Shown here: piece after piece, positions 52,584-54,859 of the stretch
Layout: each line of letters begins with the position of its first letter
Position numbering within the stretch: the first letter of the stretch is position 1
Sequence record: PV574017.1
Length of the DNA stretch: 64,000 bases
DNA from: Escherichia phage EcM-vB1
Reading direction: 5' to 3' (one strand)
The notes under the pieces: model-generated
The model's database searches: none
The model's input: only the letters and a program-made list of their open reading frames with translations
Told to the model about the DNA's origin: nothing
Program-made: the position numbers and the translations under genes

Positions 52584-53684
52584 TTACTCAGAAGGCATTT
52601 CAACACGAACTGAAATAAAAGCATCACTCGGGATATCAATAGGATCACCGTCAGAAAAACCTTCTATCTCATTTCTAGCAAAAACCGGAGAGGTTGGATG
52701 GGTTCTGTGATAGGTTTTAACTAAAATAGAACCATCTTCTTTAATCTCATAGTCCAGCCAAACCCTAGGTTGTTTGTTGCGGTCAGTAGGGATTTCAAAG
52801 CCGCCGTCAATGCCTCCCCATTTTGCATCTGCGTTTAAGCCAAGGCAACCGGTAATCAAGTACTCACCAACACCTTGCCGAATGACATTAACCCCCTCAG
52901 ATTCCTCGTTCGTCTCATATCGACCGTCGGAGTAAATATGAACTACCGGAGATGCCGCTTTGATAAATCCGTTTACATCAACAGTGGTGTTTTTGTTTGT
53001 AAGACAATGGACATATTTTATTGTTCCGTCTGCAATCTTTATTGCGTAAGATATGCGACCGTATTGTGAGGCTTCGCCACCAGACCCTGCATATGACACA
53101 CCGTGGGCAATCCAGAAGTTAGTATCCTCTGGCTGCATATACCAGTAGCAGTTAAACAAGTCTAAAGTAAACAGGCCGTTCCCGGAGGCATGTTGGACAC
53201 GATCCCCAGTACCACCTACGCCTGAATTTGCTGGGGTGTTACTTAGCGCTCCAATATTGAACCTTGCACCAGCAGCATCTCCAGCCCCTGTCCCACCATT
53301 AGCAATAGGTACATTATCCAGAGTAGAAACACTTCCCAACCCTAGATTAGAACGAGCACTAGCAGCGTCTTTAGCTCCAGTGCCTCCTTGTGTGACAGAC
53401 AGTGCTGTAGTGAGTCCCGTGAGGGATGTTATATCAGAGTTTGTACCAGAAGCGGCAGCACCTAAAATTGATCTGGAGATGTTCACATTACCAGTAATCT
53501 CATCAGGAGCTTGGTTATTTACAGTAACAACATAAGGTTTCTGAGCCTGTACAGACCCATTGTACTGAGAGTCTTTATCAGAATCTGGTGCTCTTATTGC
53601 CTCCCCTCCAGTCCAATCAGGAAGTCGAATGTTGATAAAATTAGTAGAATCTGCATCGGTAATACCATCTGCCAATTTACCCAA
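52584..53684 (-). CDS. tail fibre, C-terminal part (GGTGA/DAAGAR repeats)
   Basis: no ATG, TTG start without good SD, 90-nt overlap with the upstream ORF. Confidence 0.6.
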   Translation of the reverse strand: MGKLADGITDADSTNFINIRLPDWTGGEAIRAPDSDKDSQYNGSVQAQKPYVVTVNNQAPDEITGNVNISRSILGAAASGTNSDITSLTGLTTALSVTQGGTGAKDAASARSNLGLGSVSTLDNVPIANGGTGAGDAAGARFNIGALSNTPANSGVGGTGDRVQHASGNGLFTLDLFNCYWYMQPEDTNFWIAHGVSYAGSGGEASQYGRISYAIKIADGTIKYVHCLTNKNTTVDVNGFIKAASPVVHIYSDGRYETNEESEGVNVIRQGVGEYLITGCLGLNADAKWGGIDGGFEIPTDRNKQPRVWLDYEIKEDGSILVKTYHRTHPTSPVFARNEIEGFSDGDPIDIPSDAFISVRVEMPSE

Positions 53685-54859
53685 GAGAAGTATTGTTTAG
53701 CCCCTGCTTGCCATTCAGTTTCAGAAACAACAGGAAGTTGTCCACTGACAAGGGATGGACCTAAATCTGAAGCAGACTCTTTAGACACTAGACGACCATC
53801 GGCTGGAAGAACGCCCGGATAGGAGATATTCTTTGTTGGGTCATAAGGGAACATTACCATCTCACCAAGATATAGAGAAGGGTTTCCTGTTGGAATGGTA
53901 ATGTCAATATTACCACTGGAGTCTGGAGAACGGGAATTAACAGTAAGAATTCTACCTTCAGTTTTAACAGGAGTTAATGTTTTGTTAGCAGCAACAGTAT
54001 AAAATTCATACTTAGTAGCTTCCCAAACTAAGACCTTCTCACCAACTTGGCGATACTGAGCGTCAGCATCAGCTTCTGCTTTAGATTGATATGTCTTGGT
54101 GGTTTTATCAAACTTGTCATTAATCTCTTGACGACTGTACTGAGCAACGTTCAGAACATTTCCTAAACCTACCGTCTCTTTGTTAAGCGTTAGAGCAACC
54201 TCTCCATCAAGAGCTGGACCGCCGTTAATAGAGACAGAACGGACAGATGGGATTAAGTTAGCAATGTTATCTAGAGTAGTTTTGTGGACGGTGTTGTCAT
54301 CTTTGTCAACATAGAAACCTAAATCACCTAGCTCTGGAACACCTGTAGGTGCTGTATCCAAATCCTTAACAGAACCATCTTTTCCGGGATCACCTTCTGG
54401 AATACCTAAAGAGATTACACCAGTGTTAGGATTAAAAGAGCCAGTAGCTGGAGTTCCCGGAGGGAGAGTTGTTACATCAACAGACATTCCTAACAGAACA
54501 TCAAGCTGATTCTGGACTTCAATAAGTTTTTGGTTAATGAGAGCAACGGCATTATTAGCATCCGATACTGCTGCGTTGGTTTGGGCAATCAGAGTCATCA
54601 AACGAGCATCTTGATCCTTAAAATCCTGCTTAAGATCTTCAATATCCTGCTTCATCAGAACACCCTGTTGATATAGACGTTCTACTTCAGCGATTAAATC
54701 ATCAATTGTACCAAACTTAGATTCTGCTAGCAGTGCCCAATATTTGGAGTCAGCTGCATATTCTGCTGCTTGCTTGTAAGCTCCGATAGAGCCTTCAGTA
54801 GCACCAAACTGCCCAACGTTATTCACTGCATCAGGTGCTTGGTTATTATAAACGATCAT
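53594..54859 (-). CDS. tail fibre, N-terminal part
   Basis: AAGGAGATA SD; its last 30 residues are hydrophobic low-complexity, consistent with out-of-frame read-through. Confidence 0.65.
   Translation of the reverse strand: MIVYNNQAPDAVNNVGQFGATEGSIGAYKQAAEYAADSKYWALLAESKFGTIDDLIAEVERLYQQGVLMKQDIEDLKQDFKDQDARLMTLIAQTNAAVSDANNAVALINQKLIEVQNQLDVLLGMSVDVTTLPPGTPATGSFNPNTGVISLGIPEGDPGKDGSVKDLDTAPTGVPELGDLGFYVDKDDNTVHKTTLDNIANLIPSVRSVSINGGPALDGEVALTLNKETVGLGNVLNVAQYSRQEINDKFDKTTKTYQSKAEADADAQYRQVGEKVLVWEATKYEFYTVAANKTLTPVKTEGRILTVNSRSPDSSGNIDITIPTGNPSLYLGEMVMFPYDPTKNISYPGVLPADGRLVSKESASDLGPSLVSGQLPVVSETEWQAGAKQYFSWVNWQMVLPMQILLILSTFDFLIGLEGRQ

Follow-up and report, generated by a model that had tools for sequence, protein, structure and literature searches.

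The split proximal tail fiber gene of Escherichia phage EcM-vB1 is most probably a product of sequencing or assembly error

Phage SU10 carries six long tail fibers on its adaptor, each built from a trimer of the long tail fiber proximal protein gp12 and a trimer of the distal protein gp13 (Siborova et al., 2022, PMC9509320). The N-termini of gp12 bind the adaptor, and the 90 N-terminal residues of this 786-residue protein were built by cryo-EM. Formation of the nozzle has been proposed to be triggered by binding of the long fibers (PMC9509320). The same two-fiber scheme of host recognition has been described for the Gordonclarkvirinae in the BASEL paper, in which the kuraviruses were dependent on the O-antigen (PMC11990801).

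The window analyzed here is a stretch of 64,000 nucleotides from phage EcM-vB1 (PV574017.1). Judged by its sequence, the interval 52584-54859 is a single gene, the orthologue of SU10 gp12, in which the reading frame is interrupted by the absence of one base. The features of the locus are as follows.

52584..54859, minus strand: whole gene, SU10 gp12 orthologue (KM01 ORF, PDB 7Z47_D, phrog_10305, PF25670)
53681..54859, minus strand: authentic N-terminal part, residues 1-393, with the adaptor-binding N-terminus and a coiled coil (tblastn)
53681..53683, minus strand: lesion, a GGG run from which one G is absent (alignments to KM01, EcP-vB, and SkaterBoy_Bas90)
53594..53680, minus strand: out-of-frame read-through, 28 spurious codons (VNWQMVLPMQILLILSTFDFLIGLEGRQ) followed by TAA (translation of both frames)
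52584..53681, minus strand: authentic C-terminal part, residues 394-758 and stop (tblastn, Pfam PF25670)
53682-53684, minus strand: TTG listed as a start, which is no real start
53697..53699, minus strand: TAA stop of the downstream frame (translation)

Once the missing base was restored, the protein matched the SU10 chain 7Z47_D of the PDB ('Putative tail fiber', 786 aa) with 1383 bits (E=0), the alignment covering residues 1-553 and 622-757 of the repaired protein. Homology with SU10 gp12 (PDB 7Z47/7Z4A/7Z4B/7Z4F) thus extends over the full length, with near-identity that includes the junction and with the same position in the gene order. The window copy differs in being broken by a one-base deletion and, when repaired, in being 758 aa long, a difference in length due to divergence of the central repeat and knob region (about residues 554-621). 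The SU10 chain is gap-free through the junction, SU10 reading ETEWQSGAKQYFSWGKLADGITDADSTNFINIRLPDWTGGEAIRAPDSDK where the repaired window reads ...AKQYFSWGKLADGITDADST..., and an alignment with the T5-like L-shaped tail fiber (8hqz_d) also crosses this point. The best-matching PHROGs family was phrog_10305, 'tail fiber protein' (1338.8 bits). The C-terminal part (residues 394-758) contains GGTGAxxAAxAR repeats and the Phage_tail_C_2 domain (Pfam PF25670, residues 624-757). The gene is preceded by an ORF encoding 250 aa (54869..55621) and followed by a gp13-like gene (50346..52543). The order adaptor-like, proximal fiber, and distal fiber is the same in Bas90 and KM01, and the names given to these genes in the YF01 record are adapter, proximal LTF, and distal LTF. 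Its interrupted frame aside, the gene is an unremarkable representative of the SU10 gp12 family. An orthologue of SU10 gp12 is expected to be one uninterrupted ORF, which the window copy as written is not.

The ORF listing contains two minus-strand ORFs at this locus, one of 421 aa with an ATG start (53594..54859) and one of 366 aa with a TTG start (52584..53684), which lie in different frames and have 91 nt in common. The first-pass annotation, which regarded the pair as one gene split by a frame change, had rightly noted the overlap but put it at 90 nt. According to codon-by-codon translation, the downstream frame lies at -1 with respect to the upstream one. The upstream frame reads ...TEWQAGAKQYFSW and then VNWQMVLPMQILLILSTFDFLIGLEGRQ before its stop codon, and the low-complexity tail noted at first pass is indeed spurious, although it comprises 28 residues after W393 rather than 30. 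The downstream frame reads TILLLGKLADGITDADSTNFINIRLPDWTGGEAIR... (also given as N*MASRG*TILLLGKLADG...) and is closed by the TAA at 53697-53699, five codons 5' of the TTG, which sets the 5' limit for the position of any frame change. No usable Shine-Dalgarno motif was found in the 25 nt preceding the TTG (AAGCAGGGGCTAAACAATACTTCTC), in agreement with the earlier remark that this start lacked a convincing one. A promoter and terminator scan of positions 52400-55100 returned no site at the junction, and its total was lower than in shuffled sequences, so nothing marks this point as a gene boundary.

Megablast of positions 52400-55000 against the phage collection matched 91 records, nearly all from Escherichia podophages of the phiEco32/SU10/NJ01 group (genus Kuravirus). 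The top matches were EcK-vB (100%) and EcP-vB, Ec3-ASingh, SkaterBoy_Bas90, KM01, and YW01 (99.6-99.8%). KM01 harbors, over the same span and with 99.65% identical DNA, a single 'tail fiber' CDS of 2277 nt (XQW40670.1), and SkaterBoy_Bas90 a single ORF of 2559 nt encoding 852 aa (Bas90_0008). In tblastn searches with the proteins of KM01 and Bas90, residues 1-393 of the former aligned with window positions 54859-53681 in frame -1 (99.7% identity) and residues 394-758 with positions 53681-52587 in frame -3 (99.5% identity). Since both halves are more than 99% identical to one continuous protein in relatives, the arrangement is no chance pattern. The single ORF in KM01 and Bas90, together with the homology unbroken through the junction, bears out the initial proposal that a frame change, here of one base, divides a single gene.

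Global alignment of a 2601-nt region with KM01 revealed 8 substitutions and a single indel, located on the minus strand where the window reads CTCTT-GGGTAAA and KM01 reads CTCTTGGGGTAAA. The G run at 53681-53683 is therefore GGG in the window (CCC on the plus strand) and GGGG in relatives, a change from G4 to G3 that was also seen in comparison with EcP-vB and SkaterBoy_Bas90. Restoring the G increases the length of the gene from 2276 to 2277 nt and generates a single ORF of 758 aa reading ...AKQYFSWGKLADGITD..., which differs from the KM01 tail fiber at 3 residues. The first-pass annotation was therefore correct in predicting that one inserted base would join the frames into a single protein, but the insertion site that it gave (53683-53690) adjoins the G run, and the protein is shorter than the predicted length of about 790 aa. 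The true join after repair is ...AKQYFSW/GKLADG..., implying that the TTG listed as a start is not read as a codon in the real protein. The junction-spanning sequence of the one-protein reading is ...QYFSWGKLADGITDADSTNFINIR. KM01 and SkaterBoy_Bas90 differ from the window in having GGGG and a single ORF. The repaired protein is identical to that of Bas90 apart from one indel, the latter protein containing an extra in-frame module of 94 aa flanked by GGTGAK(N/D)AASARSNLGL repeats. Tandem Repeats Finder did not report this module in the Bas90 gene, and the protein alignment indicated short direct repeats at its borders and no tandem array.

The distribution of the deletion was assessed with a 201-nt probe across the site by comparing the lengths of the query and subject spans in 48 phage records. 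The span was one base longer than in the window in 46 records and two bases longer in one. The only record other than the window to display the short form was EcK-vB. This distribution bears on the possibility that the G run is a site of programmed -1 ribosomal frameshifting or transcriptional slippage, generating a short and a full-length fiber protein. The downstream frame is indeed -1, and the overlap offers a window of about 100 nt for a shift. However, a zero-frame scan from 53696 to 53594 detected no X XXY YYZ heptamer between the bounding stops, and the arrangement is not conserved, as 47 of the 48 relatives read the gene in one frame, as do KM01, Bas90, and SU10. A run of three G residues is too short for transcriptional slippage. 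We regard programmed recoding as highly improbable.

Equally improbable is the existence of two separate genes, encoding an N-terminal anchor and a C-terminal fiber protein translated from the TTG or from a downstream ATG. Phage fiber genes do undergo modular splitting, and the EcK-vB record annotates separate CDSs of 421 aa and 300 aa in the gp12 region. Against two genes, the TTG is not preceded by a Shine-Dalgarno sequence, the junction has no promoter- or terminator-like site, and no record besides EcK-vB splits the gene at this position. An exact look-up of the 421-aa product found no match on record elsewhere. In addition, the last 28 residues of the 421-aa ORF are without a match, whereas translation of the same DNA in the correct frame gives GKLADGITDADSTNFINIRLPDWTGGEAIR, a perfect match to SU10 gp12.

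The gp12 lesion is not the only one of its kind in the window. Isolated one-base indels, defined by the lack of any other gap nearby and by few mismatches in the flanks, were counted in pairwise comparisons. Against Bas90, the window contained 17 isolated one-base deletions and no insertion (2.8 per 10 kb). Comparison with KM01 identified 18 isolated indels, corresponding to 16 deletions and 2 insertions in the window, and comparison with EcP-vB (99.65% identical) identified 14, the window being shorter at 12 of these. The control pair, KM01 and Bas90, which originate from independent laboratories and are likewise about 97% identical, differed by 5 isolated indels in 70.8 kb (0.7 per 10 kb), all of which are intergenic (outside the annotated CDSs of KM01). 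Of the 18 window deletions counted after normalization to Bas90 coordinates, 12 were located within runs of at least three identical bases, and the one-base lesions were mostly found in runs of 3-6 identical bases.

Frame switches were detected by tblastn in window genes that are intact in relatives, including those for the large terminase (TerL), gp12, and gp13, in addition to genes encoding a gamma-glutamyl cyclotransferase, a RimK-like ligase, a GlmS-like aminotransferase, an HNH protein, and a protein with a GTP-binding domain. Besides gp12, at least eight other window genes are frameshifted, among them the TerL and tail needle genes. Deletion sites elsewhere in the window include positions 4891, 10208, 11323, and 12751. 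The terminase is interrupted at residue 389 of 513 (window positions 61348-61349), within the Terminase_6C nuclease domain (residues 326-482). This deletion is private to the window, since all 60 of the 60 records among the matches listed were one base longer, and the terminase probe retrieved no record at 100% identity. The distal fiber protein gp13 is interrupted at residue 385 of 732 (tblastn), the deletion lying at 51390-51392. The tail needle gene (SU10 gp18; PDB 7Z4B, 322 aa) is frameshifted at codon 8 (position 45606), where CGTAAGAAC becomes CGTAGAAC in the window. Without an intact terminase nuclease and a tail needle, a phage could not form plaques, so at least some of the deletions must be sequence errors. 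Because the deletion in gp12 resembles those present in essential genes, the split of gp12 is most probably an error as well.

The records of EcK-vB and EcP-vB have the same source as the window. The 2.6-kb region containing gp12 is 100% identical in EcK-vB, raising the possibility that the two records are the same sequence. This was rejected since whole-sequence identity is 99.5-99.8% and about 30 indels differ. Comparison of the window with the complete EcK-vB sequence also revealed two patches of clustered substitutions, and TerL, which is broken in the window, is intact in EcK-vB. In a run-normalized comparison, 8 of the window deletions were private, 4 were common to the window and EcK-vB only (in gp12, the tail needle gene, and two small genes), and about 6 more were common to the window, EcK-vB, and EcP-vB. 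The gp13 deletion is common to these three sequences, 10 other records having the extra base. EcK-vB and EcP-vB each contain many private indels, and split CDSs in EcK-vB include those for the scaffold, an ejection protein, and a CDS of the nozzle region. These private sets fit an error-prone data set. The absence of the same G in EcK-vB implies that the deletion is not a purely random error. Its recurrence could be accounted for by a systematic, context-dependent error, by a shared pipeline or read set, or by a mutation that is real and inherited. The codon-8 frameshift in the tail needle gene belongs to the same class of deletions, restricted to the window and EcK-vB, and this argues for systematic error.

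We therefore infer that the gp12 split results from an error of sequencing or assembly and that the deletion is not present in the phage, a reading to which we assign a probability of about 0.8. One G of a four-G run would have been under-called at 53681-53683, and this homopolymer under-call, left uncorrected in the sequencing or assembly process, would be the source of the missing base. Conceptual translation leaves the true frame after W393 and runs through 28 meaningless codons to a stop, the remaining 365 codons surfacing as a second ORF that owes its TTG to chance. The phage itself would produce a normal fiber protein of 758 aa, the trimer of which would dock by its N-termini on the adaptor and build the long tail fiber with the distal protein gp13. 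The window lesions resemble the homopolymer indel errors of uncorrected phage assemblies in that they involve single bases, are strongly biased toward deletions, are mostly homopolymeric, are scattered regardless of coding constraint, and differ among sibling assemblies. They depart from this pattern in that some sites, including that of gp12, recur in a second assembly, pointing to a systematic rather than a random process.

The main alternative, which we consider unlikely, is a real frameshift inherited by the phage and by EcK-vB, with truncation of the protein after residue 393, particles devoid of functional long fibers, and infection relying on the short fibers. Accessory side fibers are dispensable in lambda and T5. 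Lambda PaPa reportedly carries a frameshift in stf, which is said to have been described by Hendrix and Duda in 1992 as yielding orf-401 and orf-314 in place of the intact stf of Ur-lambda. As at the locus analyzed here, a one-base deletion relative to wild relatives makes lambda PaPa stf, a side tail fiber gene, appear as a pair of overlapping ORFs, about 400 and about 300 codons long. In lambda, the stf mutation has been verified, and the fibers are dispensable since J binds LamB. In contrast, the window lesion is one among many similar lesions affecting essential genes and is probably not real. The same deletion in two non-identical assemblies is suggestive of a real mutation, as is the frameshift of the neighboring distal-fiber gene in the window, EcK-vB, and EcP-vB, which would correspond to a nested, progressive loss. 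However, the deletions common to the window and EcK-vB include the codon-8 frameshift of the tail needle gene, and the nuclease domain of the terminase is broken in the window alone. Since no plaque-forming phage could carry all of these lesions, the data set must contain spurious deletions of this very type. The 17-to-0 excess of deletions over insertions, mostly in homopolymers, also argues against a real mutation, as does the fact that the rest of the genome is not intact. Finally, EcK-vB has the same origin as the window and is full of indels of its own.

A more specific version of this alternative is that a sewage kuravirus lineage lost its long fibers in steps, first gp13 and then gp12, and infects multidrug-resistant E. 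coli by means of its short fibers and nozzle alone. We consider this version improbable, more so than an inherited gp12 mutation as such. The distribution of the two fiber-gene deletions, gp13 being affected in the window, EcK-vB, and EcP-vB and gp12 in the window and EcK-vB, is nested and would also fit a stepwise real decay. If true, stepwise loss would be a natural experiment comparable to lambda PaPa, indicating that the long fibers are dispensable in the genus. Yet, given the proposed triggering of nozzle formation in SU10 by the long fibers and the dependence of the BASEL kuraviruses on the O-antigen, the long fibers of kuraviruses are probably not dispensable.

The main import of sequencing or assembly error as the origin of the split concerns the quality control of the genome sequence. 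As written, the annotation leads to two spurious 'tail fiber' or 'outer membrane' proteins, as is already the case in EcK-vB, and it also yields truncated versions of the terminase, tail needle, and distal fiber proteins. The sequence should be corrected, or the frameshifted genes flagged, before it is used for host-range prediction or for the engineering of receptor-binding proteins. Both readings of the split have precedents, whether it stems from a common homopolymer error or, with lower probability, follows the course of lambda PaPa stf. Most probably, the split of gp12 is not biological. If the lesion were real, it would mean that the long fibers of kuraviruses can be lost, and the evidence points in the opposite direction.

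The distal long-tail-fibre gene, which adjoins gp12, is likewise split in the window, and genes elsewhere in it are frameshifted:

50346-52543, minus strand: orthologue of SU10 gp13 (long tail fiber distal protein), lesion at 51390-51392
~44660-45627, minus strand: tail needle gene (SU10 gp18, PDB 7Z4B), lesion at 45606
60976-62513, minus strand: large terminase subunit, lesion at 61348-61349
4891; 10204-10240; 11321-11324; 12746-12752; 31098-31104; 33948: further frameshift sites relative to KM01 and SkaterBoy_Bas90 (Bas90)

The gp13 orthologue is present as ORFs of 395 aa and 311 aa because one base is missing from a run (CCC in the window versus CCCC, plus strand, 51390-51392). 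Its intact counterpart in KM01, a close Kuravirus relative, encodes 732 aa and includes a Peptidase_S74 chaperone domain. The gp13 deletion is common to the window and to the sibling records EcK-vB and EcP-vB, and the extra base is present in 10 other records. The tail needle gene is frameshifted at codon 8, where CGTAAGAAC becomes CGTAGAAC in the window, and the deletion responsible, at 45606, is also found in EcK-vB. The terminase lesion (TT in the window versus TTT) is private to the window, since each of the 60 listed relatives has an extra base here, EcK-vB and EcP-vB included; the frame is lost at residue 389 of 513, within the Terminase_6C nuclease domain.

The further frameshifts were identified by comparison with the corresponding intact genes of KM01 and Bas90. 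They affect genes encoding a hypothetical protein (with a lesion close to the gene start), a GlmS-like aminotransferase, a RimK-like 'S6 glutaminyl transferase', a γ-glutamyl cyclotransferase (frameshifted by a 2-nt deletion, TC), a GTP-binding-domain protein, and a protein labelled HNH or small terminase.

The public annotations of EcK-vB and EcP-vB are both unreliable as a reference. The EcK-vB record (L002, PV591327.1) carries only 26 features in 74 kb, and one strand of the EcP-vB record is devoid of features. At 8460-12811 of the former, the four fragments of the two long-fibre genes are labelled 'outer membrane protein'.

The length of gp12 itself varies among relatives. SkaterBoy_Bas90, MN03, and other relatives harbor an additional in-frame module of 94 aa, which is absent from the short form found in the window and in KM01:

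53360-53410, minus strand: site of the module, gp12 residues ~490-500 (module at 3218-3500 of L001, SkaterBoy_Bas90)

The module is flanked by direct repeats encoding GGTGAK(N/D)AASARSNLGL, an arrangement consistent with its gain or loss through recombination between internal fibre repeats.

The window and EcK-vB are nearly identical except in two patches of dense substitutions (roughly 5-10%), located respectively among early genes and in the region of the nozzle gene:

32462-32927: dense-substitution patch
46613-48281: dense-substitution patch

This pattern suggests either mosaic recombination among co-circulating kuraviruses or a consensus derived from a mixed population.
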